Origin: Bacillota bacterium
GTDB lineage: Bacteria; Bacillota; Clostridia; Ch29
Direction: 5' to 3'
DNA length: 64,000 nucleotides
Assembly: GCA_040766775.1 (NCBI GenBank)
Contig: JAXGPT010000002.1
Span: 34,607-98,606, forward strand
The notes below the pieces were generated by a model. That model searched no databases and was not told where the DNA came from. It saw only the letters and a program-made list of their open reading frames with translations. Both the position numbers and the translations under genes were made by a program. Below, piece by piece: positions 3,221 through 53,220 of this stretch. Every line of letters begins with the position of its first letter. Position 1 is the stretch's first letter.

Positions 3221-5149
3221 ATGTTCGCCCGACATGGGCAGTAACTAGGCGGTGAAAGTCCGCTATGGGCTTGGTAGTGGGAACCATTAGCTAAACAGCA
3301 AGGGTGTTCACCGTGAGGTGAAATTGAGGAAGCTGCAGGCAAAGTCCTGCACTGACGGACAGGAACTGTGACATAAGGTATACGTGGAACGGACGAGTTT
3401 GCCACCAAAACGAAGTCCAACACTACCCGAATTCCACGGTGTAAATGCAGCGGTGACATGGGATGAAAGTTACTGTTCTTAATCGGGAGGTCTGGGTTGG
3501 CAGGGGTACGTCAGGCAGGGAATGAATTTTCCTCATGATAACCCATGCAGCGATGTATGGCCGAGCCTGTCAGAAGTCAAGAAGAGGTCATAGTACCATA
3601 CCGGATATATACGGAATGGGAAGGACCGAACGGAAGGATGTTTTGGTATTGTGAAGCACACTACGAAATGCGATGAGCGCAGCCAACTTCATACTGAAGA
3701 CTTACCTGTGTGAGGATAGGTGGAACCTGAAAGAAGTATGGAGCGTAGAGCATTTCGTTTACGTCTTCCAAAGACCAAAACGATGGCAAATGAGTATGCT
3801 GGAAGCTTGCTTGATAAAATACTTCTGACCGAGACAACATGAACAAGGCATACAAGAGGGTTAAGTCAAACAAAGGCAGCCATGGAATTGATGGAATGAC
3901 AGTAGATGAACTTCTACAGTTTCTGAAAGAAAAAATGGTGAGCAAATCAGGCAGTGTATCCGAGGGTACTTACGCAAGCCAAAACCTGTGCGGCGGATAG
4001 AGATAACAAAGCTGGCGGGAAAAAGACTACTTGCATACCAACAGTAGTGGACAGAGTAAGTGCAACAGGCAATAGCCCAGGTATTAAGCCCAATCTTGGA
4101 GAAGCGTGTTCTCGGAATTGAGCTTGCGGTTCAGGCCGGGCGACGCAAAACAGGCGGTATTGAAATGCATGAATACATAGAAGCAGGCTACGACTGGGGC
4201 TGTGGATATACGGACTTTGCGAAATACTTTGATACCGTAAACCACGACAAATTGATGGGCCTAATCCATAAAACCGTTAAGGATAGGGAGTAATATCACT
4301 TATCCGCAAATTCTTCAATCAGGAGTAATGATAAATGGAGTAGTGGTGGAAACGGAAGAGGGCTGTCCGCAGGTGGCCCCTTGGCGCCCGCTGCTATCCA
4401 ATATCATGCTGAATGAACTGGATAAGGAACTAGAAAGAAGGGGGCTTAAATTTCTGCCGGTACGATGATGTAAACATATACGTCAGAAGCAGGAAGGCAG
4501 CAGAAAGGGTAATGGCCAGTGTTACACGGTTTATCGAAGACGATTTAAAACTTCTCTAAGGTAAACCGTGAAAAGAGTACTGTTGATACAGGCTATGGCG
4601 GCTGAAATTTTTAGGTTTTCCTTTTACCGTAAAGATAGTGGTATAGGGATAAGGGTGCACCCAAGGTCACTACGAAGCTTAAATCCAAGCACAAAGGAGA
4701 TAACCTCAAGGAGTAATGCTATGAGCATGGAATACAGGATATTTAAACTGAACCAGAGCATTACCGGCTGTAAACTACTTTAGCCTGGCGGACATGAAAG
4801 CAATAGCTGCTAAACTTGACGGGTGGATAAGGCGCAGGATAAGAATGTGCTATTGAAACAGTGGAAGAAAGTTAGTACAAAGCACAGAAACCTTGTAAGG
4901 TTAGGTATAGATAACTACAAGCAAGTGGCTTTAGCAGTATACAACACGAGAAAAGCTACTGGTATACAGCCATTAAAGGCTTTATCCTTATTAAATCCAT
5001 CACCAATGAATACCTAAAAAGTTTGGGTCTAAAAGTCAGTATCCGAAAGATATTCATTAGTCCATTAAATATCTCGCTGAACTGCCGTATGCCGGACGGC
5101 ACGTACTATATGGTGAGAGGACGGGGGTTAATCATCCCTCCTACTCGAT
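3221..5149 (+). mobile_element. Group II intron copy 1 (class-C-like; inserted right after a terminator); reverse-transcriptase/maturase ORF decayed
   Basis: ~1.93 kb, >90% identical to 25371-27298; group II RT motifs (MNKAYKRVKSNKGSHGIDG.., PTVVDRVVQQAIAQVLSPI..) split by many stops/frameshifts; YADD motif deleted in this copy; domain V/VI-like 3' end ...gccgtatgccggacggcacgtac...ctactcgAT. Confidence 0.8.
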
Positions 5150-8013: not shown

Positions 8014-8037
8014 CGCCCCGTTAAGGGGTTTTTTTAA
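8014..8037 (+). terminator. Intrinsic terminator inside the ~700-bp non-coding gap upstream of secA
   Basis: cccc-gttaa-gggg hairpin followed by T7. Confidence 0.5.
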
Positions 8038-8144
8038 TGTGCCGCCTCACCTTAATTTTAAAGAGGTATGCCACATTTCTCTTAATTGCCTATTGGTTTA
8101 TTTCATGATAGAATTTACTTTGAATTAAAGACGAGGTGTTGGAT

Positions 8145-10639
8145 ATGGCAAATTTTTTATCAAAAATCCTGGGCAATACTAAATGAGAGGGAAATTAAAA
8201 AGCAACAAAACGGTGGAAGCGATAGAGGCACTGGAGGGGCAGATGAAGGCCCTCAGCGATGAACAGCTTAGGCAAAAGACCGATGAGTTTAAAAAAAGGC
8301 TTGCTGCGGGAGAAACCCTTGACGACCTGCTGGTGGAAGCCTTCGCGGTGGTAAGGGAGGCGTCGGTCAGGGTTCTAAATATGAGGCATTTCCCGGTGCA
8401 GCTTGCGGGAGGCATTGTGCTGCACCAGGCAGGATTGCCGAAATGAAAAACTGGCGGCTGCAAACCCGGTAGCGACACTGCCGGGTTACCTTAACGCCCT
8501 CTCCGGAAAGCGGGTTCATATAGTCACCGTTAACGATTACTTCCGGGAAGCAACAGGGACAGCCAGTGATGGGCGAAGTGTACAAGTTTCTGGGGCTGGA
8601 GGTCGGGTTTACGTCGGCCCGGACTTTGAACAGCGTAAAAAAGTCCTACAACGCTGACATAACCTTCGGTACCAACAACGAGTTTGGTTTTGACTACCTG
8701 AGGGATAACATGGTTATATACAAGGAGCAGATGGTGCAAAGGGGACTTAACTATGCCATAATAGACGAGGTGGACAGCATACTGATAGACGAGGCCAGGA
8801 CCCCGTTGATAATTTCCGGTGTCGGCGAGAAGTCCACCAAGCTTTATTCGGTGGTGGACACCTTTGTAAGGGGTCTAAGACCGGAGGAACACTTCACGGT
8901 GGACGAAAAGGCCAACACCGTAACGCTGACCGAAGAGGGAGTAAGGAAGGCGGAACAATATTTCAACCTGGAAAACCTGGCGGACCCGGAGAACATGGAG
9001 ATATCCCACCATATAAACCAGGCCCTCAAGGCTCACCGGCTTATGTCCCGTGATATTGACTACGTGGTGAAGGACAACCAGGTTATAATAGTTGACGAGT
9101 TTACCGGAAGACTAATGTTCGGCAGGCGGTACAGCGACGGGCTGCACCAGGCCATAGAAGCCAAGGAGAGGGTTAAGGTTGAAAGGGAATCCAAAACCCT
9201 GGCCACCATAACCTTCCAGAATTATTTCAGGATGTACAGCAAATTGGCAGGAATGACGGGTACCGCCAAGACCGAGGAGGAGGAATTCCGGGCTATCTAT
9301 GGCATGGACGTTGTGGAGATACCCACTAACATGCCCATGATAAGGGACGACCTGCCGGATATTGTATACCGGACCACCGAGGGAAAGTTTAAGGCGGTGC
9401 TAGAGGACATTATACAAAGGCATGCGGCTGGGCAGCCTATACTTGTGGGAACCATTAGCATAGAAAAATCAGAACTTTTGAGCAGGATGCTGCAAAGAAG
9501 GGGTGTGCCCCACGAGGTTCTAAACGCCAAGTACCATGAGAAGGAAGCCCAGATTATAGCACAGGCGGGTCAACGGGGTGCGGTGACCATATCCACCAAC
9601 ATGGCGGGCAGGGGTACCGACATAGTTCTCGGTGAAGGCGTTAAGGAACTGGGCGGACTGCATGTAATAGGCACCGAGCGGCATGAGAGCAGGAGGATTG
9701 ACAACCAGCTTCGAGGCCGGTCGGGAAGGCAGGGGGACCCCGGTTCTTCGCAGTTTTACATTTCCATGGAAGATGAACTGATGAGGCTTTTCGGGTCGGA
9801 GCGGATAATGGGCATGATAGACAAACTGGGCTTTGATGACACACAGCCCATTGAACACCCCATCCTGAGCAAGTCGATAGAGAATGCCCAGAAAAAGGTG
9901 GAGGCTCGAAACTTTGATATAAGGAAGCATGTGCTGCAGTATGACGATGTAATGAACAAGCAGAGGGAAGTAATTTATGCCCAGCGCAGAATGGTGCTGG
10001 AGGGGGAGAACCTGAAAGAACAGGTCCTCGAGATGATAAGCGACGTCATAGATTCAATGCTGGATATTTATACCTCCCACAGCCAGTACCCCGAGGAATG
10101 GGACTTAAAGGGCCTTGAAACCTACGCGAGAAAGGTGTTTGTAATTAAAGACCCTCTGCCCTTTGGAAACCCCGAGGACCTAACCCGGGATATTCTTAAG
10201 GATATGCTTATGGAAAAGGCCATTGGAATTTATAACGAGAAGGAAGAAAAGATTGGCTCCGAACAGATGAGGGAACTGGAAAGGGTAATACTGCTCCGGG
10301 TTGTGGACATGAAGTGGATGGAAAACATAGACAACATGGACCAGCTGAGGCAGGGTATTGGCCTTAGGGCGTACGGGCAGGAGGACCCGGTTATAGCGTA
10401 CCAGAAGGAAGGCTACGAGATGTTCCAGGAAATGATAAATTCAATAAAGGAAGACACGGTAAGCTACCTGTTCGGGGTTAGGATAGAGCAGGTGCCAAAA
10501 AGGAAAGGGTGGCCCAGCCGGTGGAGGCAAGCCAGGGGGAAGGAGCCAAGAAACCGGTCAAAAAAGAGGGCAAGGTGGGCAGGAACGACCCCTGTCCCTG
10601 CGGAAGCGGCAAGAAATTCAAAAAGTGCTGTGGTAGGTA
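8145..10639 (+). CDS. secA: Preprotein translocase ATPase SecA (at least 5 frameshifts in this assembly)
   Basis: [10 protein letters not shown].., [62 protein letters not shown] and the Zn-finger tail [18 protein letters not shown] all present but in different frames; RBS before ATG 8145. Confidence 0.85.
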
Positions 10640-14341: not shown

Positions 14342-14821
14342 ATGAAATATTCCTTTGTAAGCAAAAGCCCTGGGGATACCTTGAAGTTTGGCATACGCCT
14401 GGGAAAGCATTTGAAGCCCGGGGACGTGGTATGCCTTGAAGGGGAGCTTGGAGCCGGCAAAACGGTATTAACCGGTGGTATAGCCAAGGGATTGGGTATA
14501 ATAACCGGTGTGACCAGCCCTACCTATACAATTATTAACGAGTACCCGGGCGAGATACCCCTTTACCACATTGACCTTTACCGGCTGGAGGACGGGGATG
14601 AGTTCTACTATATAGGCGGGGAGGACCTTTTGTACGGACAGGGGGTATCGGTGATTGAATGGGCATCCCGGGCGGAGGGGATTCTGCCGGAGGACTGCCT
14701 GTGGATCAGCCTCAAGAGACTTGACGAATCCAAAGATTTTAGGCTTATAGAACTTACGGTTGCCGAAAAACACAGGGACTTTTTGGAGAGGGTGTCAAAG
14801 AGTGAAAATACTGGCCATTGA
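14342..14821 (+). CDS. tsaE: tRNA t6A biosynthesis ATPase TsaE (YdiB/YjeE)
   Basis: P-loop GELGAGKT; size and synteny with tsaB-rimI-tsaD. Confidence 0.85.
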   Translation: MKYSFVSKSPGDTLKFGIRLGKHLKPGDVVCLEGELGAGKTVLTGGIAKGLGIITGVTSPTYTIINEYPGEIPLYHIDLYRLEDGDEFYYIGGEDLLYGQGVSVIEWASRAEGILPEDCLWISLKRLDESKDFRLIELTVAEKHRDFLERVSKSENTGH

Positions 14822-15518
14822 TACTTCCTCAATGGTGGCTTCTGCCGCCGTGATGGATGGGCAAAAACTTTTAGCTGAGTACATAGTAAACCATAAAAGG
14901 ACCCATTCGGAGCAGCTTATGCCCATTATTGAGAAAGTGCTTGAAAGCAGCGGCACCGGCATCCGGGAGATTGACGCAATAGCGGTGGCCAGCGGGCCGG
15001 GGTCCTTCACCGGTCTTAGGATAGGGGCTGCCACCGCAAAGGGGCTGGCCCACGCCCGGGGCATCAAGATTGTGGGAGTTCCCACCCTTGACGGCTTGGC
15101 CTTTAATTTGCCCCACTGCCAGGGTATTATCTGCCCGATAATGGACGCAAGAAGGAACCAGGTATATACCGCCCTTTATAAATGGGATAGGGGGGGCTTT
15201 TACAAGCTAATGACCCACTGCGCAATCGCCCTTTCGGAACTATTAGAGGAAATAAAAAGAAGAGAGGAGAGGGTTGTGTTCCTGGGGGATGGCGTTCCTG
15301 TACACCGGGAAACCATCAAGAAGGAATTGGGGGAAAGGGCCGATTTTGCACCCAAAAACGCCGACAGGCAGAGGGCGTCCTCCATCGCCGAACTAGCCCT
15401 CCAGGCACTGGAGCGGGGGGAAGGCCAGGACCCGGAATCCTTTGTACCATTCTATTTGAGGAAATCCCAAGCCGAAAGGGAATACGACAGAAAAACCAGG
15501 CCGGAGGGCTGCCTATGA
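14802..15518 (+). CDS. tsaB: tRNA t6A biosynthesis protein TsaB (YdiC/YeaZ)
   Basis: KILAIDTSS...GPGSFTGLRIG motif; GTG start at 14802. Confidence 0.8.
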   Translation: MKILAIDTSSMVASAAVMDGQKLLAEYIVNHKRTHSEQLMPIIEKVLESSGTGIREIDAIAVASGPGSFTGLRIGAATAKGLAHARGIKIVGVPTLDGLAFNLPHCQGIICPIMDARRNQVYTALYKWDRGGFYKLMTHCAIALSELLEEIKRREERVVFLGDGVPVHRETIKKELGERADFAPKNADRQRASSIAELALQALERGEGQDPESFVPFYLRKSQAEREYDRKTRPEGCL

Positions 15519-15967
15519 ACAACCCGGCCATTTCACCCATGCGCATAGAGGACCTGGATGATATTGAGACCATTGAGAATTTGAGCTTCCAGGCACCCTG
15601 GCCCAGGCAGGCCTTTGTACGGGAACTCTGCGAAAACACCCTCGCCCGTGATTTTACCGTAAGGGATAACGGCAGGGCGGTGGCCTATGGCGGGATGTGG
15701 CTAATACTGGACGAGGCCCATATAACCAACATCGCGGTGCATCCCCGGTACCGGGGAGAGGGAATAGGCAAGGCACTGCTTAAGGGCATGATTGATTATG
15801 GTATCTCAAAGGGAATAAAAAGCTTTACCCTAGAGGTAAGGGAAAGCAATCATGTGGCCATAGCGCTGTACAGCCGGCTGGGTTTTAAAAGGGTAGGCGC
15901 CAGGAAGGATTATTATTCCGATACGAGGGAAGATGCGATAATAATGTGGCTGCGTATTCCGGATTAA
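15515..15967 (+). CDS. rimI: Ribosomal-protein-alanine N-acetyltransferase RimI (GNAT)
   Basis: GNAT acetyl-CoA motif RGEGIGKALL; between tsaB and tsaD. Confidence 0.8.
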   Translation: MNNPAISPMRIEDLDDIETIENLSFQAPWPRQAFVRELCENTLARDFTVRDNGRAVAYGGMWLILDEAHITNIAVHPRYRGEGIGKALLKGMIDYGISKGIKSFTLEVRESNHVAIALYSRLGFKRVGARKDYYSDTREDAIIMWLRIPD

Positions 15968-16245: not shown

Positions 16246-17313
16246 ATGTCGTATTTGAAAGCAGCGGCAAAAAAATTGGAAAAGTTCAAGAACGGACAGG
16301 ATACAATTATCCTTGCGGTGGAGACTTCCTGTGACGAGACCTCCTGCGCGGTTTTGAAAAACGGCCGGGAGGCCCTTTCAAACGTGATATCCACACAGGT
16401 AGATATTCACAGGAAATACGGCGGTGTGGTTCCCGAGATTGCCTCCCGGAAGCACATAGAGCTTATTGACTACGTGATTGACCAAGCGCTGCGGGAGGCG
16501 GGAGTATCGCTGCGGGATTTGGATGCGGTAGCGGTCACCAACGGCCCGGGGCTTGTGGGGGCGCTGCTGGTGGGTGTTTCCCATGCCAAGGCGATGGCCT
16601 TTGCACTGGGGGTGCCGCTGGTGGGGGTGCATCATATAGAGGGACATATTTGTGCCAATTACGTGCAGCACAAGGACCTGGAGCCCCCCTTCGTCTGCCT
16701 GGTGGTCTCCGGGGGGCACAGCCACCTTGTACATGTCAAGGACTATGGGCGGTATGAGATACTGGGCAGGACAAGGGACGATGCCGCCGGGGAAGCCTTT
16801 GACAAGGTGGCCCGGGCACTGGGACTGGGGTATCCCGGCGGGCCGCTGATTGAAAGGGAAGCCCGAAAGGGCGACCCCGAAGCGGTGGACTTCCCAAGGA
16901 CTTACCTTGAGGCGGGAAGCCTGGACTTCAGTTTCAGCGGCTTAAAGACCGCGGTGTTGAACCATTTGAATCAGTGCAGGCAAACAGGCCGGCCGGTTAA
17001 CACCGCCGATATTGCGGCGAGTTTTCAGAGCGCGGTAGTAGAGGTGCTTGTGAACAAAACCATGGCGGCGGCCAAAAAATGCGGTACCGGTGTTGTGGCC
17101 CTTGCCGGGGGCGTTGCGTCAAACGGAAGGCTGCGCATGGAGTTTGAAAACCGGTGTGCCGACGAAGGACTGCAGCTTAGATACCCTTCCAGGGTCCTGT
17201 GTACCGACAATGCAGCCATGATTGGTGCGGCGGGCTATTACAGGCTTTGCAAGGGGCTGGCAAGCCCTATGACTCTTAATGCGGTAGCTTCAATGGAAAT
17301 TGATTCTTATTAA
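16246..17313 (+). CDS. tsaD: tRNA N6-adenosine threonylcarbamoyltransferase TsaD (Gcp/YgjD)
   Basis: [14 protein letters not shown]...HIEGH motifs; ATG 16246 with GGAGAAGGGGAAAGG RBS; TATAAT at ~16208. Confidence 0.85.
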
Positions 17314-17373
17314 GCAAAAATCTTATGTTTACCTTCCCGGGGAAGTTTTTGTTGGTAACCGGGGTGGGGAATT

Positions 17374-17484
17374 TGTGGATATTGTGGACATGCCCGGCCG
17401 TGACAGCGAAAAACCCTTTTAATTGTTGTGGATAAACTTGTGGACGGTGTGGACAGTTTGCGGAAATATAAATAATTATCCACA
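17374..17484. promoter_or_regulatory. DnaA-box cluster downstream of tsaD/gcp
   Basis: TTATCCACA perfect at 17476-17484 (+) and 17427-17435 (-); near boxes at 17374-82, 17384-92, 17439-47, 17448-56; sits between convergent tsaD and bioY. Confidence 0.6.
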
Positions 17485-17599
17485 AGCTGTGTTGGTTCCA
17501 TAATCTTTATGCAACTATTATATGACGCAAAATGTAAGACCGGCTGTTCTAAACAGCCGGTAGCAATGGTCATTTAGCAGAAGCTTATGAGCCGGAAAT

Positions 17600-18138
17600 A
17601 TTCAAAAGATTTTGCTTTATAAGGATTGTGCGCACGGAGCAGGCAACGGCGGCGCCCAGGGCAATCTTTATGATGGCTATGCCAATAAAGGGGAACACCC
17701 CGGCCATAAAAGCGGCCTTAAGCGTTATATCCAGCACCAGCGAAAGCTGCAGCATACCTGAGTATAGATTACACACAGCCCGCACAGCATGGCAAGAAAT
17801 GTACCGGTCAGCGTGGGAAGGGGCCTTTGTTCCACAATCTTTCCAATAACAAAGGAAGACAGCAAAAAACCCGTTATATAGCCCCCGGTAGGACCCATCA
17901 GCCGGGCAAGTCCGGCGGTACCCCCGGAGAAAACGGGCATTCCGATTATTCCGACGGCTATGTATATTAACTGGGAAAGCGTTGCCAGTCGGCTTCCGAG
18001 TATTGCCGCAGCAAGGCATACCGCCAGTTCCTGCATTGTTATTGGTACAGGACTTATGGGCAGTGGAATTGTAACCTGGGCGAAAATTGCTGTTAGTGCT
18101 GCAAACATTGATACAAGTATCATATCTTTTGTTTTCAC
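17600..18138 (-). CDS. bioY: Biotin transporter BioY (frameshifted near the 3' end)
   Basis: N-terminal 137 aa match BioY (PITMQELAV...GGTAGLARLMGPTGGYITGF); C-terminal part continues in another frame. Confidence 0.65.
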
Positions 18139-19096: not shown

Positions 19097-20131
19097 TTGT
19101 TTAATGGGAATTACCAAGCCAATATCAATTTGCAAGGAGTGATTATTATCAAAAGGATAGCTGTAGTTACCACCGGGGGAACCATTGCCATGAAGGCGGA
19201 CCATACCGGTCTTGCCAGTCCCTCCTTAAGCGGCGATGACTTAATAGCTGCCATACCTTCGCTGAAGAAAAGGGCGGCCGTTGACGTGTTTGCTTTCTGT
19301 AATGTTCCCAGTTCATACATTACCATGGACCACCTTGTCCGGTTAAGAAATTATATTGATCAGTTGGGAGAGCAGGGTTATGCAGGAGTAGTTGTAACCC
19401 ATGGCACCGATACAATGGAGGAGACGGCATATTTCCTGGATTTAACGATGCAAAGCAGTATTCCGGTTGTGTTAACCGGTGCCCAGAGGAACCCGTCTCT
19501 GGTTAGTTCCGACGGTCCGGCAAACCTGCTGGATTCAATCCTGGTGGCGGCGGATGACAGGGCGCACGAAATGGGGGTGCTCATTGTTTTTGCTTCCGAA
19601 ATTGTTGCGGCAAGAGAGGCTACCAAGTTTCACAGGACCAGGGTGGACACCTTCAAGAGCTTGGAGTTCGGACCCATGGGGGCAGTAAACAACGACAGGG
19701 TTATATGGTGTAGGAAGCCGCAGCGGGAGCCAAGGTACATAATTGAGAAGGCTGACAAAAGGGTGGACATAGTGAACTGTTATATCGGAGCCGATTCTGC
19801 CATGATATACAGCAGCCTGGAAAAGGGTACCGAGGGTATAGTGATAGAAGCCCTGGGCGCCGGTCACGTGGCACCGGCAATGCTGGAAGGAATAAAAAGC
19901 GCCCTTGAAAAGGGCGTACCGGTGGTGCTGACCTCAAGGGTTCCCGTGGGCAGGCTGCTCACCGATACCTACGGGTACGAAGGGGGCGAGAAGCATGCCT
20001 GCAGCCTGGGGGTAATACTGGGCGAAGACCTTTCGGCATGGAAAGCGAGGATAAAGCTTATTGTACTATTATCCGCAGGCCTATCGCCCACCCAGATAAG
20101 GCGTGAATTCGAGCATAGGTTTTACGACTAG
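19097..20131 (+). CDS. ansA: L-asparaginase
   Basis: IAVVTTGGTIAM...VVTHGTDTMEETAYFL motifs; true start likely internal near 19139. Confidence 0.8.
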   Translation: MFNGNYQANINLQGVIIIKRIAVVTTGGTIAMKADHTGLASPSLSGDDLIAAIPSLKKRAAVDVFAFCNVPSSYITMDHLVRLRNYIDQLGEQGYAGVVVTHGTDTMEETAYFLDLTMQSSIPVVLTGAQRNPSLVSSDGPANLLDSILVAADDRAHEMGVLIVFASEIVAAREATKFHRTRVDTFKSLEFGPMGAVNNDRVIWCRKPQREPRYIIEKADKRVDIVNCYIGADSAMIYSSLEKGTEGIVIEALGAGHVAPAMLEGIKSALEKGVPVVLTSRVPVGRLLTDTYGYEGGEKHACSLGVILGEDLSAWKARIKLIVLLSAGLSPTQIRREFEHRFYD

Positions 20132-22036
20132 AAAGGAAGATTTTTCGATGACTTCTTCCCACTCCGTGTACAGTGAATCCAGTTTATCACGGAGGCCTTT
20201 CAGCTTTTCGTTAAGCTCTTTTATTTTACCAGGGTCAGAATACGCCTCCGGCTGGCACAGGAGATGTTCCAGCCGGGTTATTTCTTCTTCTAACTCGTCA
20301 ATCTCCTTTTCCAGCCTGTCCAGTTTAAGTTTTTCCTGTTTCCTTTTTTCCCGCTCTTCCCTTTCCTTTTTTCTTTGATGTTTCATAGCCGTTTTTGTCG
20401 GGGAGGCTGTTTCGCTGATGCTTGCTTCTTCTTCCTGCTGCTGTTTTTTCATCCGGTAATAGCTGTAGCCTCCGTGGAAAAGGTTTATACCTTCCGGGGT
20501 AAGCTCGGCTGTCTTGCTGGTAACCCGGTCAAGAAAATACCGGTCGTGGGATATTACAAGGACCGTGCCGGTATAATTGCAAAGGGCGTCCTCCAGGGCA
20601 TGCCTTGACTTAATATCAAGGTGATTTGTGGGCTCGTCCAGCAGCAGCAGGTTTGACCGGGACAGCATGAGTTTCGCCAGGGCCACCCTGCTTCTTTCGC
20701 CTCCGCTTAGGCAGTCAATTGTCTTGTACACGTCATCGCCGCTGAACAAAAAGGCTGCAAGTACATTTCTTACCTGGGTGACCGGAAGGTCCGGGCTTTG
20801 GTCCCATACCTCGTCAAGCACCGAATTGGAAAGGTTAAGGTTCTCTTGCTGCTGGTGGTAGTACTCAATATTTGTATTATGGCCCTTTATGATGCTGCCC
20901 GAATCTGGCTGCAATAAGCCGGATATTATGTTAAAAAGGGTGGTTTCCCGATCCGTTGGGGCCAATTATTCCTATCCTTTCGCCCCGATAGACCTTTAAG
21001 TTTACGCCGTAAAACAATTGGCTGCCGGGGAAGGACTTGCAAACGTTCTCCAGCGACAGTACATTCCTTCCGCTTTAGCAAGCGGCTCAAGCTTTATCGA
21101 AATTCCTTCTGTTTCATGCAGGTTGATCCGGCATCTCAATACGGGACAGCAATTTTTCCCGGCTTTTAGCCCTTTTTATTGTTTTTTCCCTGTTATATGA
21201 CTTCAGCTTTTGTATAATTTCCCGCTGTCGGTCCATTTCACTTTGCCTGTTTTTAAAGTCCCTCAGCTGCAGTTCCATCATTACCTGTTTTTGCTTAAGG
21301 AAATCGGTGTAATTGCCCCTGGAACTGGTACAGGGCTGTATCGTCCAGTTCGAATATCCCGGTGCATACCTGTCCAGGAAATACCTGTCGTGGGAAATAA
21401 CCATCACCGCGCCCTCATAGCCGACGAGAAAGTTCTCCAGCCATTCCACCGCATTTAAATCCAGGTAGTTGGTGGGCTCGTCCAGCAGCAGCAGGTGATA
21501 TTTTTTGAGCAATAGTTCCGCCAGCGCGACCCGGGTTTTTTGACCGCCGCTTAGAAGTTCAACCGGCATTTTAAACTGGGCTTCTTCAATACCTAGCCCT
21601 AAGGGCACCCCATCTGGCTTTTGTATTCATAGCCCCCTCTTTCCGCGAACTCCTCGGTAAGGTCCCCGTATTCCTTCATAAGCTGTTCCAGGTCCCTGCC
21701 GGACGCCCTGGCCATGCGGGATTCCAGTTGGGATATTCGGATTTCCATTTCCAGAAGAAATGCGAAGTTTTTAACAAGATGCTCCCACACCGTTACCCCA
21801 GGGTTAAAATGGGGATGCTGGGGCAAAAGCCCTATGGTAGTATCCGCAGCGGTGTATATGCTTCCCGAATCCGGCTGCTCCAGACCGGAGATTATCTTGA
21901 AGAGGGTTGACTTGCCTGCCCCGTTGGCCCCTACCACGCCAATCCTGTCCCCGGGATGTATTCTAAAATTAATATTATTTAATATTGATTCTACACCAAA
22001 ACTTTTTGCTGATATTATTACATGACAGCAGTGCAA
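20081..22036 (-). CDS. ABC-F family ATPase (YdiF/Uup/EttA-like), two ABC domains + C-terminal coiled coil; frameshifted in this assembly
   Basis: Three consecutive minus-strand ORFs: 21599-22045 (domain 1: GANGAGKST), 21114-21608 (LSGGQKTRVALA...LLLDEPTNYLD), 20081-20965 (domain 2: LSGGERSRVALA..LLLDEPTNHLD..ISHDRYFLD + KE-rich coiled coil); TTG start with AAGGAG RBS. Confidence 0.75.
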
Positions 22037-22162
22037 TTCTTTCACTCCTTTTACAGGGGCAGTTGTTTAGCAACTATCGACTACCAACTAAAATGATATA
22101 TATCATTTTAACAAAATGGCAACTGATAATAAAGAAAACTGGGGTAAATGACCAGATTCTTA

Positions 22163-22254: not shown

Positions 22255-22890
22255 ATGGAGAAAATGAGAAGCAATATATCCATGGCTGTAATCAGGAGAT
22301 TGCCGAAATACTATAGATACCTCAATGAGCTGATGGAAAAGGGAGTGACAAGAATATCCTCTATGGAATTCGGGAGATCCTGGGATTACCGCTTCGCAGA
22401 TAAGACAGGACCTGAACTGTTTCGGCGGTTTCGGACAGCAGGGCTATGGGTACAACGTAAAGGAGCTTGTGGATGAAATTGCCAATATACTGGGCCTTAA
22501 CAAAACCAATAACGCGATAATAGTGGGTGCGGGCAACCTAGGCCAGGCTATTGCCAACTACAGCGGGTTCCGTGGCTCCGGTTTTATATTAAAAGGCATG
22601 TTCGATATAAACCCAAGACTGGTGGGTATAAGCATCAGGGACATTAAGATAATGGATATTGACGAAATGAGCGAGTTTATTAAAAAAGCCGGATATAAAT
22701 GTTGGCATAATATGCACTCTACGAGGCGCAGGAAGCCGCCGACAGGTTGACCGGCGAAGGGATTAAAGCAATATGGAACTTTGCACCCAGCGACCTGGAC
22801 GTGCCCGAGGATGTAATAGTGGAAAACGTTCACTTAAGCGAGAGCCTCATGGTCTTGGCGTACCTTATGAATCAGAGGGAGAACATGTGA
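22255..22890 (+). CDS. rex: Redox-sensing transcriptional repressor Rex (at least 3 frameshifts)
   Basis: IRRLPKYYRYLNELMEKGVTRISS; ...ITASQIRQDLNCFGGFGQQGYGYNVKELVDEI..IVGAGNLGQAIANY (Rossmann); C-terminal ..IKAIWNFAP..VENVHLSESL in a third frame. Confidence 0.8.
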
Positions 22891-24019: not shown

Positions 24020-25271
24020 ATGGCAGAAAAAACTATGAACCCCTTTGAAATTGCCCAGAAGCAAATAAAAGCTGCATGCGACAAACTGGGCGCCGAGCCG
24101 GCTGTATACGAGATTTTGAAACAGCCCATGAAGGTTGTGGAAGTGAGCATCCCTGTGAAGATGGACAACGGCGAGGTAAAAACCTTCATAGGCTACAGGT
24201 CACAGCATAACGACGCCATTGGTCCGGCAAAGGGCGGAATAAGGTATCATCAGGACGTTAACATGGACGAAGTAAAGGCCCTGTCAATGTGGATGACATT
24301 CAAGTGCGGTGTAACGGGTCTTCCTTACGGTGGAGGCAAAGGCGGAATTGTTGTTGACCCGACCCAGCTGTCCCAAGGCGAACTCGAAAGGCTGTCCAGG
24401 GGTTACATAAGGGCCATAGCAAATTTCATCGGTGACAATAAAGATATTCCAGCCCCCGATATGGGCACCAACGCCCAAGTCATGTCCTGGATGATTGACG
24501 AACTCGTGCCGTTATAAGGGGATACAAACGAGTTTGGCGCTATAACCGGAAACCGGTGGGCTTTGGCGGCTCGCTTGCAAGGACCGAAGCGACAGGCTAT
24601 GGTATTGCCAATATGGCAAAAATGGCCGCCGACAAAGTAGGGGTGAAATTTGAAGGCGCAAGAGTAGCGGTACAGGGCTTCGGTAACGGTAGAAGCTTTA
24701 CCTGCAAATACTTAAGCGAACTTGGAGCAAGTGGTTGTATTTCGGACGTCTCCTGTGCGCTGTATAATGAGGACGGTATAGACGTAAAAGCATTGATGGA
24801 ATATGCAAAGGGCAATAAATTCCTAATAACCGGTTTCCCGGGCGCCATGAGCTTCCAGGGAAGATATACTGGGCATGGAAGTGGACATCCTGCTCCCTGC
24901 GCTATGGAAAACCAACTGACCGCCGAAACCGCAGGCAATGTCAAGGCTAAACTGGTGAAGCTGGAGAGCCAAACGGCCCGACCACACCCGAAGGGGACGA
25001 GGTCTTTAAACAAAGAGGAATACCGGTGTTCCCGGATATACTGTGCAATTCCGGAGGAGTTGTAGTATCCTACTTCGAATGGGTACAGAACCTGCAGAAC
25101 TACTACTGGACCTTCGAAGAGGTACAGGAAAAACAGATCATAAAGATGAAAGAGGCCTTCGACGCCATATGGGCGCTTAGGGAAGAGAAAAACGTCGATA
25201 TGCGAACCGCAGCTTACATGATTGCCATCAAGAGGGTTGCGTATGCAATGAAGCTGCGCGGCTGGATCTAG
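24020..25271 (+). CDS. gdhA: NAD(P)-dependent glutamate dehydrogenase (at least 3 frameshifts)
   Basis: [25 protein letters not shown], ..[14 protein letters not shown].., ..VAVQGFGN.., C-terminal [20 protein letters not shown] spread over three frames. Confidence 0.8.
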
Positions 25272-25370: not shown

Positions 25371-27298
25371 ATGTTCGCCTGACATGGGCAGTAACTAGGC
25401 GGTGAAAGTCCGCTATGGGCTTGGTAGTGGGAACCATTAGCTAAACAGCAAGGGTGTTCACCGTGAGGTGAAATCTGGAGGAAGCTGCGGCAGGCAAAAA
25501 AAGTCCCGGCACCCCTGACGACAGGAACTGCATACAAGGCATACGTGGAACGGACGAGTTTGCATAACAAAACGAAGTCCAACACTACCCGAATTCCACG
25601 GTGTAAATGCAGCGGTGACATGGGATGAAAGTTACTGTTCTTAATCGGGAGGTCTGGCAGGTACGTCAGGCAGGGAATGAATTTTCCCCATGATAACCAT
25701 GCAGCGATGTATGGCTGATTGTCAGAAGTCAGCAGAGGTCATAGTACCATACCGGATATATACGGAATGGGAAGGACCGAACGGAAGGATGTTTTGCATT
25801 GTGAAGCACACTACGAAATGCGATGAGCGCAGCCAACTTCATACTGAAGACTACCTGTGTGAGGATAGGGTGGAACCCGAAAGAAGCATGGGATAAAGAG
25901 AGTATTTCGTTTACGTCTTCCAAAGACCAAAACGATGGCAATGAGTATGCCGGAAGCTTGCCGATAAAATACTTGACCGAGACAACATGAACAAGGCATA
26001 CAAGAGGGTTAAGTCAAACAAAGGCAGCCATGGAATTGATGGAACGACAGTAGATGAACTTCTACAGTTTCTGAAAGAAAAATGGTGAGCAAATCAGCAG
26101 CAGCAGGTATCCGGGAGAGGGTACTTACAAGCCAAAACCCGTGCGGCGGATAGAGATACCAAAGCCGGGCGGCGGCAAAAGACTACTTGGCATACCAACA
26201 GTAGTGGACAGAGAGTGCAACAGGCAATAGCCCAGGTATTAAGCCCAATCTTTGAGAAGCAGTTCTCGGAATTGAGCTAGTGGGTTCAGGCCGGGAAGGG
26301 ACGCAAAACAGGCGGTATTGAAATGCAAGGAATACAGAAGCAGGCTACGACTAAGGATATTGACCTTGCGAAATACTTTTGATACCGTAAACCACGACAA
26401 ATTGATGGGCCTAATCCATAAAACCGTTAAGGATAGGGGGAGTAATATCACTTATCCGCAAATTCCTTCAATCAGGAGTAATGATAAATGAGTAGTGGTG
26501 GAAACGGAAGAGGGCTGTCCGCAGGGCATTCCCTTAAGCCCGCTGCTATCCAATATCATGCTGAATGAACTGGATAAGGAACTAGAAAGAAGGGGGCTTA
26601 AATTCTGCCGGTACGCCGATGATGTAAACATATACGTCAGAAGCAGGAAGGCAGCAGAAAGGGTAATGGGCCAGTGTTACACGGTTTATCGAAGACGATT
26701 TAAAAACTTAAGGTAAACCGTGAAAAGAGCAATTGCTGATAGGCCATGGCGGCTGAAATTTTTAGGTTTCTCCTTTTACCGTAAAGATAGTGGTATAGGG
26801 ATAAGGGTGCACCCAAGGTCACTAGCGAAGTTTAAATCCAAGCTAAAGGAGATAACCTCAAGGAGGCAATGCTATGAGCATGGAATACAGGATATTTAAA
26901 CTGAACCAGAGCATTACCGGCTGGGTAAAGTCACTTTAGCCTGGCGGACATGAAAGCAATAGCTGCTAAACTTGACGGGTGGATAAGGCGCAGGATAAGA
27001 ATGTGCTACTGGAAACAGTGGAAGAAAGTTAGTACAAAGCAACAGAAACCTTGTAAGGTTAGGTATAGACAACTACAAGGCATGGCAGTATGCCAACACG
27101 AGGAAAAGCTTACTGGCACACACAATAGCTTTATCCTGATAAATCCATCACCAATGAATACCTAAAAAGTTTGGGTCTAAAGTCAGTATCCGAAAGATAT
27201 TCATTAGTCCATTAATATCTTTTCGAACCGCCGTATGCCGGACGGCACGTACGGTGGTGTGAGAGTGACGGTGGGGTTAATCATCCCTCCTACTCGAT
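25371..27298 (+). mobile_element. Group II intron copy 2 (class-C-like; inserted right after a terminator); RT ORF decayed but keeps YADD
   Basis: Same 5' end as copy 1 directly after the T-tract; RT pieces include ..EGCPQGIPLSPLLSNIMLNELDKELERRGLKFCRYADDVNIYV..; multiple frameshifts; 3' end ...ctactcgAT. Confidence 0.8.
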
Positions 27299-34908: not shown

Positions 34909-36537
<1,629 letters not shown>

Positions 36538-49120: not shown

Positions 49121-49376
49121 ATTAAAACCCCCTCAAAACGCTGTCAAAAGAATTCTACCAGAAATGCCGCCGGTTTACCAGCAGGCCGCGCTTAGATTAT
49201 TTCCGCGGATTCCAGTTGACAAAACACGAACATTAGAATTCAAAAATTAATAAATATACGTTATATAATATACAAACCGGCGATTCTAAAGAGATTTATT
49301 CGTTATTCCTATTGACACTGACAAGCCCCTTTGTTAATATTTAAAATAAAGGAAAGAATATAGCTGAATAAGTGTT

Positions 49377-49552
49377 TCGCTCATATAATGGCGGGAATTG
49401 GCCCGCGAGTTTCTACCAGGCGACCGTAAATCGCCTGACTATGGGTGAAAGCGGGTTTCTTACGTTTTAAACCCGTGTACGTTTTGTACCCCCCGTAAGA
49501 TAAACCCTGCGGAGGTTTCACCTGTATACACCGCAGGGTTTGTACATTTTTC
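49377..49552 (+). ncRNA. Guanine riboswitch (aptamer 49377-49447) with terminator-type expression platform, leader of the pur operon
   Basis: cucAUAUAAUggcGGGAAUUGGCCCGCgAGUUUCUACCaGGCgACCGUAAAUcGCCuGACUAUGggug matches the xpt/purE guanine aptamer with C in GACUAUG; then accctgcgg...ccgcagggt hairpin plus U-tract. Confidence 0.9.
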
Positions 49553-50323: not shown

Positions 50324-51039
50324 GGTTCGGAGTGGTGGTTTTCCCGGGTTCCAATTGTGATGTTGACTGCTACCATGCCCTAAGGGACGTTATGGGACAG
50401 GACGCCGAATACATCTGGCATAAGGCCGACAGCCTGGATTCCTTTGACTGCATAGTGCTGCCGGGGGGGTCCACTTACGGCGGCTACCTCCGGAGCGGCG
50501 CCATTGCAAGGTTTTCCCCGGTAATGGAAAGGGTTGTAGAGTTTGCCCTAAGCGGCAAACCGGTTATAGGGATTTCCGACGGGTTTCATGTGCTGACCGA
50601 GGCCGGCCTGCTGCCGGGGGCCATGCTCCGTAACAAGAGCATGAAGTTCATATGTGACAATGTGTATATAAAGGTGGAAAGCTCCGGCACTCCCTTTACA
50701 AACCTATGCAGGGACGGGCAGGTGCTGAAAATGCCTATAGCCCACTGGGACGGGAACTATTACGCGGACAGTGATACGCTGAGGGAAATGGAACAAAACA
50801 AGCAGGTGGTATTCAGGTACTGCAGCCCGAAAGGGCATATAAGCGGCGAATCCAATCCCAACGGCTCACTGCAAAATATTGCCGGTGTCTGCAACCGGGA
50901 AGGGAATGTTTTGGGGATGATGCCTCACCCTGAAAGGTGCGTGGAAGAGATACTTGGCGGCAGGGACGGAATAGTGATTTTCCAATCGATAATCAACTAC
51001 TTGAAGGGAGGCATGGCCGGTGGAAAAGAAACCCTATGA
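50320..51039 (+). CDS. purQ: FGAM synthase glutaminase subunit PurQ (nucleophile motif reads SDGFH, not CNGFQ)
   Basis: VVFPGSNCD.., ..[14 protein letters not shown].., ..MMPHPER.. present. Confidence 0.8.
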
Positions 51040-53220
51040 AAAGGTGGGGCTCACCAGAGAGGAGTACCAAAGAATCCTGGACATACTGGGAAGGGAGCCC
51101 AACGAGCTGGAACTGAACATGTACGGTGTTATGTGGTCGGAGCACTGCAGCTACAAGAACTCAAAGCCGGTTCTTAAAATGTTTCCCACCTCCGGCGAAA
51201 GGGTACTGCAGGGGCCGGGGGAGAATGCGGGCATAGTGGACATCGGCGACGGCCTTGCGGTGGTAATGAAGATTGAAAGCCACAACCACCCATCGGCGGT
51301 GGAGCCTTACCAGGGCGCAGCCACCGGGGTGGGCGGCATTGTAAGGGATATTTTCACAATGGGGGCAAGGCCGGTGGCGCTGCTAGGTTCGCTGCGGTTT
51401 GGCGAACTGGACAATGAAAGGACAAAGTACCTTTTCGAAAAGGTTATAGAGGGTATTGCAGGGTACGGCAACTCATTAGGAATACCCACCGTGGGCGGAG
51501 AGGTGTATTTCAACGACTGTTACCGGGGCAATCCGCTGGTAAACGCCATGGGTGTAGGCCTTATCCGTCACGATGATATAAAGCGTGGTACCGCCGCCGG
51601 GGCGGGGAACGCGGTAATGATTGTAGGGGCTTTTACCGGCAGGGACGGAATAGGGGTGCCAGCTTTGCATCGACGGAATTAAACGAAGAATCCGAGGAAA
51701 AACGTTCGCCGATGCAGGTGGGGGACCCCTTCATGGAAAAGCTTCTGCTGGAGGCGTGCCTTGAGCTGTTTAAAACCGGGTACGTAGTGGGAATGCAGGA
51801 CCTGGGAGCGGCGGGGCTTACGTCGGCCTCCAGCGAGACCGCAAGCCGCGGCGACAGTGGAATTGAAATTGACGTCGCATTGGTACCCAGGAGGGAAACC
51901 GGCATGATACCGGTGGAGGTTATGATTTCGGAATCCCAGGAGCGCATGCTGGTAATAGTGGAAAAGGGAAAGGAACAAGAAGTAACAGACATATTTGAAA
52001 AATGGGGCCTTCACTCGGCGGTTATCGGAAGAGTGACCACTGATGGGATGCTTACCATAAGGGAAAACGGCGAAGTGGTGGGAAGGGTCCCGGCAAAGTC
52101 ATTGGCGGAGGATGCTCCGGTCTATCATAGGGAGTATAAGGAACCGGCTTACTATAAGCAGCTTAAAGACCTGGATATGGAAAGCCTTGAAATGCCGGAC
52201 GACTTTAACGATGTGCTTGTTAGACTATTAAGAAGTCCCAATATCGCCAGCAGGGAATGGGCATACCGCCAGTTCGACCACATGGTGGGGACCTGTACCG
52301 CCGTAGGCCCCGGGTCCGACGCGGCGGTGATAAGGATAAGGGGAACCGAAAAGGCCATAGCCTTAACCACCGACTGCAACAGCAGGTACTGCTACCTTGA
52401 CCCGGGGACGGGCGGCGCCCTTGCGGTGGCGGAGGCTGCCCGGAACCTGGTGTGCAGCGGGGCAAGGCCGCTGGCGGCGACCGACTGCCTGAACTTTGGC
52501 AACCCGGAAAAGCCGGAGGTGTTCTGGCAGTTCCGCCTAGCGGTGTCCGGGATGAGCGAAGCGTGCCGGGCGCTGGATACGCCGATTATAAGTGGCAATG
52601 TAAGTTTCTACAACGAAACGGATACCGACGCGGTGTTCCCCACGCCGGTGGTGGGCATGGTGGGGCTTATAGAGGACACGGCCCATATCACCACCCAGGC
52701 CTTCAAAGACCGGGGGGATGTTATAGTGCTGCTGGGCGAAAACGGCGAAGAGGCCGGGGGCAGCGAGTACCTGAAGGTTATTCACGGCCTGGAGAAGGGC
52801 AGCGTGCCGGTCCTTGACCTTGGGCGGGAAAAGAAAGTGCAGGACTGCTGCCTTGAACTCATAAGGAACGGGCTTGTAAAATCCGCCCATGACTGCAGCG
52901 AGGGCGGTATTGCGGTAGCCCTTGCCGAAAGCTGCATATCCGGGGGCAAAGGGGCCCGGGTGGCCTTTGAAGGCTGCGGCCGCAGCGATTTGCTGCTGTT
53001 CGGTGAAACCCAGTCCAGGATACTGGTCACGGTGGAGGAGGACCGCCTGGAGGACCTTTTGGAAACCGCCGGCCGGCTTGGAGTGTCCGCCGCGGTGCTG
53101 GGACGGGTTGAGGATGAAGGCTTGGAAATATCGGTAGATGGTCAAAAATTGATAGGGCTTTCTGTTAAGGAATTGGAAACCAACTGGCGGGAGGCTTTGC
53201 AATGTATTATGGCAAAGTAG
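51020..53220 (+). CDS. purL: FGAM synthase large subunit PurL (one frameshift near 51655)
   Basis: Two ORFs (51020-51682, 51712-53220) joining at ..GVPAlhrr|[25 protein letters not shown].. Confidence 0.85.

Follow-up and report, generated by a model that had tools for sequence, protein, structure and literature searches.

The stretch of DNA analysed here, referred to as the window, comprises 64,000 nucleotides of a contig (JAXGPT010000002.1, positions 34,607 to 98,606) from an uncultured bacterium of the class Clostridia. It carries the genes tsaE (14342-14821), tsaB (14760-15518) and rimI (15515-15967), followed by tsaD (the ortholog of gcp/ydiE; plus strand, 16246-17313; Pfam TsaD, E=1e-98) as the last gene of this tsaE-tsaB-rimI-tsaD series. 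The likely start of tsaD, judged from its translation, is the ATG at 16246, and homologs of 355 aa match it over the full length. Directly after tsaD there is a weak terminator-like hairpin with a T-run (plus strand, 17333-17355; 5-bp stem, the hairpin itself at 17333-17345), which is not conserved and is absent in the relatives L082, L085 and L086. The next gene, bioY (minus strand, 17585-18138), is convergent with tsaD and is followed by a strong intrinsic terminator (minus strand, 17539-17561; 10-bp stem, with the T-run on the minus strand). The stop codons of tsaD (17313) and bioY (17585) are separated by a 271-bp spacer, and it is within this spacer, flanked by the tsaD hairpin and the bioY terminator, that a DnaA-box array is found, in agreement with the initial annotation, which had located it between convergent tsaD and bioY.

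Beyond bioY, the window encodes a GntR/FCD regulator and an asparaginase, then an ABC-F ATPase that is the ortholog of ydiF (minus strand, 20081-22045; broken into three ORFs; Pfam ABC_tran, ABC_tran_Xtn and ABC_tran_CTD, and tblastn) and rex, the ydiH ortholog (plus strand, about 22255-22885; tblastn with the Rex of L082, 74-80% identity in three pieces). Both genes had been expected nearby, and both are there. Downstream of rex follow gdh, groEL, guaB, guaA, a purine riboswitch and the pur operon; the riboswitch aptamer (RF00167, 83.8 bits) lies at 49361-49461, ahead of purE. Group II intron RNA domains (D1-D4) occur in two copies, at 3307-3626 after hpf and at 25457-25777 after gdh.

Many genes of the window are split or frameshifted, including the 5' end of secA (8016-8640), bioY (17585-18138, split over two frames with Pfam BioY on both ORFs), the ABC-F gene (20081-22045), rex (22255-22885), gdh (24020-25065), groEL (34909-36537) and purL (51020-53220). 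Between 3.2 and 8.5 kb, genes present in relatives (a 213-aa protein, MASE9-HD and DUF5317) are missing or found in pieces only. The genes broken in the window stay whole in the contig of the relative L081 and in other relatives; bioY, for example, is a 204-aa gene in L081, and the ABC-F gene is intact there with 634 aa. The window's frameshifts look like the product of an error-prone assembly rather than real decay, because the indels are locally dense relative to this 94%-identical contig.

GC skew is positive along the entire window and the cumulative skew climbs monotonically, which makes the plus strand the leading one and places oriC to the left of the window, with neither origin nor terminus inside it. 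A replication origin was accordingly rejected as an identity for the array, the scanned ORFs of the window also yielding neither a DnaA nor a DnaN domain. For orientation, in the related complete genome CP121688.1 tsaD lies at 735 kb of 4.08 Mb, counted from the start point of the record as given.

Six DnaA boxes are present at 17374-17484, of which two are perfect copies of TTATCCACA and one has a single mismatch. The box scan therefore returns the number of boxes, and of perfect ones, that had been described before; the mixed orientation described with them holds in that both strands are used, the actual split being five boxes on one strand and one on the other. Two further weak positions, 17350 and 17459, were recognised by comparison with relatives. 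When the whole of 17350-17484 is counted, three to five weaker boxes with a TCCACA core are found besides the stronger ones, and 7 of the 8 boxes lie on one strand.

The first, degenerate position (box 0; minus strand, 17350-17358) reads TTACCAACA, with two mismatches, and relatives keep the box-like TTATTCACA, TTATTAACA and TTATCAACA there. Boxes 1 and 2 form an abutting pair on the minus strand: box 1 (17374-17382) is ATATCCACA, with one mismatch and a TGTGGAT core that is invariant in the alignment, and box 2 (17383-17391) is ATGTCCACA, with two mismatches and a TGTGGAC that is invariant in relatives. The pair is followed by a spacer (17392-17426) whose length (34-35 bp), not its sequence, is conserved in the alignment, and then by a triplet, also on the minus strand. 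The triplet starts with box 3 (17427-17435), a perfect TTATCCACA that is invariant in the alignment; its weak middle member, box 4 (17439-17447), is CCGTCCACA, with three mismatches and the TCCACA core only, at a position conserved across lineages; box 5 (17448-17456) is CTGTCCACA, with two mismatches, and is a perfect TTATCCACA in L082, L085 and L086. Box 6 (minus strand, 17459-17467) is mutated in the window to ATTTCCGCA, where relatives have ATTTCCACA. Finally, box 7 (plus strand, 17476-17484) is an inverted, perfect TTATCCACA that belongs to the window's family only and is absent from distant arrays.

Two conserved blocks that are not boxes flank the array in the window's family. One is CTTATGTTTACC (plus strand, 17322-17333), which is unique within the window and of which TTATGTT.ACC is invariant in six relatives. 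The other is GGTTCCATAATCTTTATGCAACTA (plus strand, 17494-17517), which contains the palindrome CATAA-N3-TTATG and is kept in L086 although bioY has been lost there. In relatives, this second block overlaps a weak promoter-like match that has box 7 as its -35 element. We considered whether the motif GGTTyCATAA-N3-TTATGCAAC could be a dif/Xer site; its arms are dif-like, but the centre measures 3 bp instead of 6 and the skew of the chromosome arm is uniform, and the candidate was rejected. A BirA operator for bioY was likewise rejected, the half-site-like TGTTTACC and GGTTTCA being about 165 bp apart and at the 3' end of bioY.

The box density of the array after tsaD is beyond chance. In windows simulated with a first-order Markov model, at least three boxes of one mismatch or less fell within 111 bp in 19 of 5000 cases, and two perfect boxes fell within 60 bp in 3 of 5000. 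The window as a whole holds 35 boxes with at most one mismatch, compared with 14.3 +/- 4.0 in shuffles, and sliding box counts pick out two sites in it: the array that follows tsaD and another one at 2331-2413.

The second array (2331-2428) lies entirely on the plus strand, between a raiA-motif RNA and hpf, and consists of perfect boxes at 2331 and 2405, boxes with one mismatch at 2353, 2384 and 2396, and one with two mismatches at 2420. It has the same offsets from the hpf start in L089 and L090 and is shifted in L091. The raiA-motif RNA upstream of hpf is full-length (2013-2225; Rfam RF03072, 182 bits against a gathering score of 101), with a promoter-like site ahead of it at 1964-1992. DnaA might affect the expression of hpf, which encodes the ribosome hibernation factor; we know of no link between DnaA and hpf in B. 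subtilis.

Conservation of the array after tsaD was assessed in close relatives, that is, uncultured Clostridia whose TsaD homologs are 74-98% identical. Gene order on their contigs matches that of the window, bioY and the ABC-F gene being unbroken (except for the loss of bioY in L086), and the array lies directly 3' of tsaD in all six that were examined. No variation is seen in the TGTGGA cores of the alignment; the spacers vary in sequence and not in length. This pattern of invariant cores among diverged spacers is, as read from the alignment, that of a phylogenetic footprint. The initial annotation had held that absence of the boxes from orthologous positions in relatives would count against it; each of the six close relatives has them, as do many distant Clostridia. 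The window and L081, whose TsaD is 98% identical, carry a somewhat eroded copy, boxes 1, 5 and 6 being at or near consensus in L082, L085 and L086. Other kinds of conserved element in the spacer were rejected. For a structured RNA or riboswitch, there was no Rfam match at E <= 1, and the covariation term of +0.14 kcal/mol amounts to none; for a small sda-like protein, stop-free frames are present, but their sequences are not conserved between relatives, leaving no conserved ORF in the spacer.

The strength of the array was gauged with the density criterion of Ishikawa et al., in which at least four clustered boxes within one mismatch of TTATNCACA are required, and a value A, obtained by adding up the affinities (4/2/1.5/1) of four consecutive boxes and dividing the total by their mean gap, must exceed 0.3. 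In B. subtilis, this threshold divided bound from unbound sites (PMC2533591), and our script gives the published entry for the cluster between gcp and ydiF exactly (d 5.3, sum 5, A 0.94). The window's array after tsaD, with three qualifying boxes (17374, 17427 and 17476), scores 0.08 and thus falls short of the density of stable B. subtilis clusters, as does that of its closest relative L081 (about 0.05), whereas most relatives pass: L087 (0.43), L085 (0.51), L082 (0.60), L086 (0.62) and L088 (3.25). The window's own hpf-upstream array passes as well (0.80). It should be kept in mind that the criterion disregards boxes with two mismatches and an intact TCCACA core, of which the window's array has three; sub-threshold as it is, this array keeps its two perfect boxes, and its weak positions still have an intact TCCACA core.

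The low score invites the explanation that the boxes are a chance or decaying remnant devoid of present function, or else sites of another protein that recognises TGTGGA. Boxes 1, 5 and 6 of the window copy stand further from the consensus than they do in relatives, and many neighbour genes are frameshifted, both of which would be in keeping with decay. However, the two perfect 9-mers and the conserved cores persist, chance is excluded by the simulations and by conservation, the conserved unit is the full 9-mer TTATCCACA and so extends beyond TGTGGA, and the frameshifts resemble assembly errors. We therefore regard this explanation as very improbable.

A counterpart of the array is known in B. 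subtilis, where a DnaA-box cluster, DBC[gcp-ydiF], occupies the interval between gcp (tsaD) and ydiF; binding of DnaA to it has been shown both in vivo and in vitro (Ishikawa 2007; Okumura 2012; Smith and Grossman 2015; PMC2533591, PMC3245932, PMC4447404). The initial annotation had pointed to this cluster, and its existence is confirmed both by these papers and by direct view of the B. subtilis-group locus L092. Binding in vivo is stable (PMC2533591); in vitro, the Kd is 0.15 uM, ATP-DnaA is preferred 16-fold at 55 nM, and the region is among the strongest DnaA-binding regions of the B. subtilis chromosome outside oriC (PMC4447404). The neighbourhood is shared too. L092 carries tsaE-tsaB-rimI-tsaD, ydiF, moaC, rex, tatAY/CY and groES, and the gene order of the window mirrors the 640-710 kb region of B. 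subtilis, so that the synteny that had been proposed extends to groESL, guaA and the pur operon.

In both organisms, the cluster lies directly after tsaD/gcp with tsaE-tsaB-rimI-tsaD, ABC-F/ydiF, rex and groESL as neighbours, it is a non-promoter site at 3' ends, its boxes are tightly packed and mostly on the tsaD strand, and the abutting pair TGTGGATATTGTG is identical. There are also differences. In the window, bioY, the GntR regulator and the asparaginase gene stand between the array and the ABC-F gene, and near-consensus boxes are fewer (A 0.08 vs 0.94). The B. subtilis-group locus L092 does not have the internal layout described below, and instead has two pairs and singles, with three plus-strand boxes at the start. 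Moreover, DnaA binding has been demonstrated in B. subtilis alone, while the window's array is known from its sequence. With its position right after tsaD in a conserved neighbourhood and the conservation of the cluster in relatives, the array is best explained as a putative ortholog of DBC[gcp-ydiF] in an uncultured Clostridia bacterium, and the interpretation of the initial annotation, a cluster conserved at this locus as a putative DnaA sink, is supported. What is new here is the presence of the cluster in Clostridia including this genome, its statistical association with tsaD, and its conserved internal layout and orientation.

The association with tsaD emerged from a TsaD search of species-representative genomes, which yielded at least 80 loci (49-65% identity among the matches listed). 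Across 87 loci (1.33 Mb, among the matches listed), 22 clusters of at least three boxes were found, 20 of which are located at the 3' end of tsaD; of the remaining two, one is the array upstream of hpf in the window, and the other is a weak cluster inside a gene. The boxes of the tsaD clusters share the orientation of tsaD in 73 of 82 cases (among the loci listed), reading TGTGGATAA in the tsaD direction. Among the matches listed, about 67 Firmicutes loci come from species-representative genomes, and 13 of these have an array after tsaD, the carriers being Alkaliphilus peptidifermentans, several 'Clostridiaceae' and 'Clostridia' MAGs, a Carboxydocellales MAG, a soil Bacillota MAG and three Syntrophomonadaceae. 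No cluster was found after tsaD in the 13 non-Firmicutes loci, in about 30 Lachnospiraceae loci, or in the Oscillospiraceae and Negativicutes loci (all among the matches listed). Absence from the non-Firmicutes and Lachnospiraceae loci indicates that the signal is lineage-specific and not compositional. As a separate observation, about 20 Lachnospiraceae MAG contigs (L001-L020, L026, L029, L030), all devoid of a cluster after tsaD, end 1-2.5 kb after the gene, which suggests a repeat there, perhaps an rRNA operon.

The array keeps to tsaD whatever gene comes next. The downstream partner is the ABC-F gene in L023, L088 and B. subtilis, bioY in the window's family, and elsewhere a lytic-transglycosylase-like gene or co-directional genes; L023 and L088 have the exact order tsaD, array, convergent ABC-F gene, rex. 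Of the tie to the ydiF locus that had been suggested, the conservation of a cluster at this locus therefore stands, but the conserved partner is tsaD and not ydiF.

Internally, the arrays are built on a common layout. Distances between adjacent same-strand boxes peak at 9, 12, 11, 21 and 43 bp, and anchored alignments resolve these into two abutting boxes, a 34-bp spacer of free sequence, and a triplet made of a strong box, 3 bp, a weak box and an abutting strong box (12+9 start-to-start), often with an additional box 11 bp beyond. This layout was found in the window's family and in L023, L038, L031, L027, L033, L050, L016 and L087. A start-to-start distance of 43-44 bp from pair to triplet recurs in L023, L031, L038, L027, L087 and L016, and the offsets from the tsaD stop match between the window (61/70/114/126) and L023 (62/71/113/125). 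Strong and weak boxes alternate along the array, and by simple arithmetic the boxes at -53, 0, +21 and +32 from the first box of the triplet are in helical phase (10.5 bp/turn).

A motif-first scan, in which metagenome contigs were searched with the 12+9 triplet, returned 120 stretches. In 16 of them, representing at least nine distinct sequences, tsaD ends 66-430 bp upstream on the same strand; one adjoins dnaA, and the remainder are in other contexts, such as between jag and mnmG or downstream of spo0A. The triplet occurs at so many loci other than tsaD that it is a generic DnaA-box module, and the idea that it is specific to tsaD was rejected. In contrast, a pair, or a single box, placed the fixed 34 bp upstream of the triplet turned up exclusively downstream of tsaD (0 of about 100 other contexts), so it is the full pair-plus-triplet layout that is found only there. 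The recurrence of the triplet TGTGGATAA-N3-TGTGGANNN-TGTGGATAA in the metagenome loci L093-L212 (jag/mnmG, downstream of spo0A, prfC and an amidase gene, dnaA) suggests a wider set of Clostridia DnaA-box clusters built on one module.

A fixed spacer length with helical phasing and free spacer sequence is typical of a defined nucleoprotein structure, and one may ask whether the array is an architectural site, at which DnaA oligomers pair or loop with oriC or other clusters and stabilise the origin-proximal domain, the reservoir being a by-product. Stabilisation of the domain around oriC was proposed by Ishikawa et al. (PMC2533591), and the rescue by an ectopic cluster in B. subtilis depended on position (PMC3245932). 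Cooperative oligomerisation of DnaA alone would, however, explain the same constraints, and we consider an architectural role improbable.

Known DnaA-box systems provide further points of comparison. DnaA-regulated promoters of the sda, ywlC and yydA type have their clusters upstream of the genes they regulate, as does DBC[thdF-jag]; these clusters share DnaA-box units with the tsaD array, and the 12+9 triplet also occurs between jag and mnmG in Clostridia. The tsaD array, on the other hand, lies at a 3' end and adds the upstream pair at the fixed 34-bp distance. In the window, both flanking genes show their 3' ends to it, and the sole promoter-like match at the array is weak and overlaps box 7. 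The array is not the operator of a downstream promoter in the window because it lies between the 3' ends of convergent genes; an operator role is conceivable where the next gene is co-directional, as in Syntrophomonas, L033, L050 and L086. In B. subtilis, gcp-ydiF is the only one of the eight stable sites that lies at convergent 3' ends and not beside a promoter.

The arrays of oriC resemble the tsaD array in that strong boxes have weak boxes of the same orientation beside them at a short, fixed spacing, an arrangement suited to the cooperative loading of ATP-DnaA. They differ from it in having an unwinding element, nearby dnaA/dnaN and a GC-skew inversion. E. coli datA is likewise a DnaA-box cluster outside oriC and promoters, and it lowers the initiation potential; it acts by IHF-dependent hydrolysis of DnaA-ATP, has another arrangement of boxes, and has neither sequence nor positional homology with the tsaD array, for which an IHF site or hydrolysis activity is not to be deduced from the comparison.

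Taken as a same-oriented DnaA-box array right after tsaD, the element is most likely one of several chromosomal reservoirs of DnaA. The predicted strong boxes at 17374, 17427 and 17476, together with 17448, which is also strong in relatives, would nucleate DnaA; ATP-DnaA would then cooperatively fill the neighbouring weak boxes at 17383 and 17439, and an oligomer would be assembled on the scaffold of pair, 34-bp spacer and triplet. The alternation of strong and weak boxes and their helical phase would fit such nucleation followed by cooperative filling by ATP-DnaA. Several reservoirs may jointly lower the free or active DnaA and hold back early re-initiation at oriC. We infer from B. subtilis that in this organism, too, DnaA would bind the array, ATP-DnaA would be preferred, and the clusters would collectively restrain initiation.

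In B. subtilis, deletion of all six clusters raises oriC/terC up to 1.37 and advances initiation (PMC3245932). Deletion of the gcp-ydiF cluster alone leaves oriC/terC unchanged at 0.99, and its re-addition alone to the strain lacking all six does not restore control (1.35 vs 1.37) (PMC3245932). A titration role for a cluster of the gcp-ydiF type by itself is weakly supported, because the single deletion was without effect and the single re-addition without rescue. It also counts against a generic sink that such a sink would need no fixed gene neighbour, orientation or spacer length.

These constraints give weight to a different explanation, that the array acts on the transcription of tsaD and not on replication. 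In one version, DnaA bound past the stop codon would form a roadblock that terminates or insulates read-through from tsaE-tsaB-rimI-tsaD, with the consequence that replication status feeds into the expression of the t6A machinery or of neighbouring genes; in the converse version, transcription of the operon would strip DnaA from the array and so tune DnaA availability to growth. Among the loci listed, 15 of the 20 array-positive ones run from the tsaD stop to the first box without an intervening intrinsic terminator, which points to an interplay with tsaD transcription. A plus-strand terminator follows the array in L092 (the B. subtilis group), L088 and L086, and in Syntrophomonas, L031 and L023 the first box overlaps the tsaD stop or lies within 10 nt of it. 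The fixed box orientation relative to tsaD and the fidelity of the array to tsaD irrespective of the downstream gene point the same way. Repression by a DnaA roadblock has been suggested for B. subtilis (PMC2533591), where DnaA also represses ywlC, that is tsaC, another t6A gene (PMC2533591, PMC8203912, PMC2685093); the literature search found no paper linking DnaA, ywlC and t6A. Yet the boxes are preceded by a terminator-like hairpin in the window, and by a strong one in L016 and L033; tsaD is co-oriented with replication, so that the fixed orientation may equally reflect fork direction; and in B. subtilis, array signals at gcp-ydiF were too weak for an effect on expression to be detected (PMC2533591). 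On balance, an action on tsaD transcription seems unlikely, though it deserves to be taken seriously.

The same observations can be cast more broadly, and no less tentatively, as an ancient, geometry-constrained Firmicutes device and not a generic sink: the pair, 34-bp spacer and 12+9 triplet, usually in the tsaD 3' UTR, would physically couple DnaA-ATP status to transcription of the t6A operon. In this doubtful but specific form, the array would always be co-oriented with tsaD, and either DnaA would act as roadblock or terminator or transcription would evict DnaA. Were it true, then together with the repression of tsaC (ywlC) the initiation of replication would be linked to translational fidelity and capacity.

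Whether as a DnaA reservoir, the reading we prefer, or otherwise, the array has persisted downstream of tsaD in Clostridia long separated from Bacilli, with its orientation, spacer length and strong/weak pattern fixed, which speaks for selection on a property more specific than titration in bulk. For the annotation of Firmicutes genomes, the array provides a recognisable non-coding landmark.
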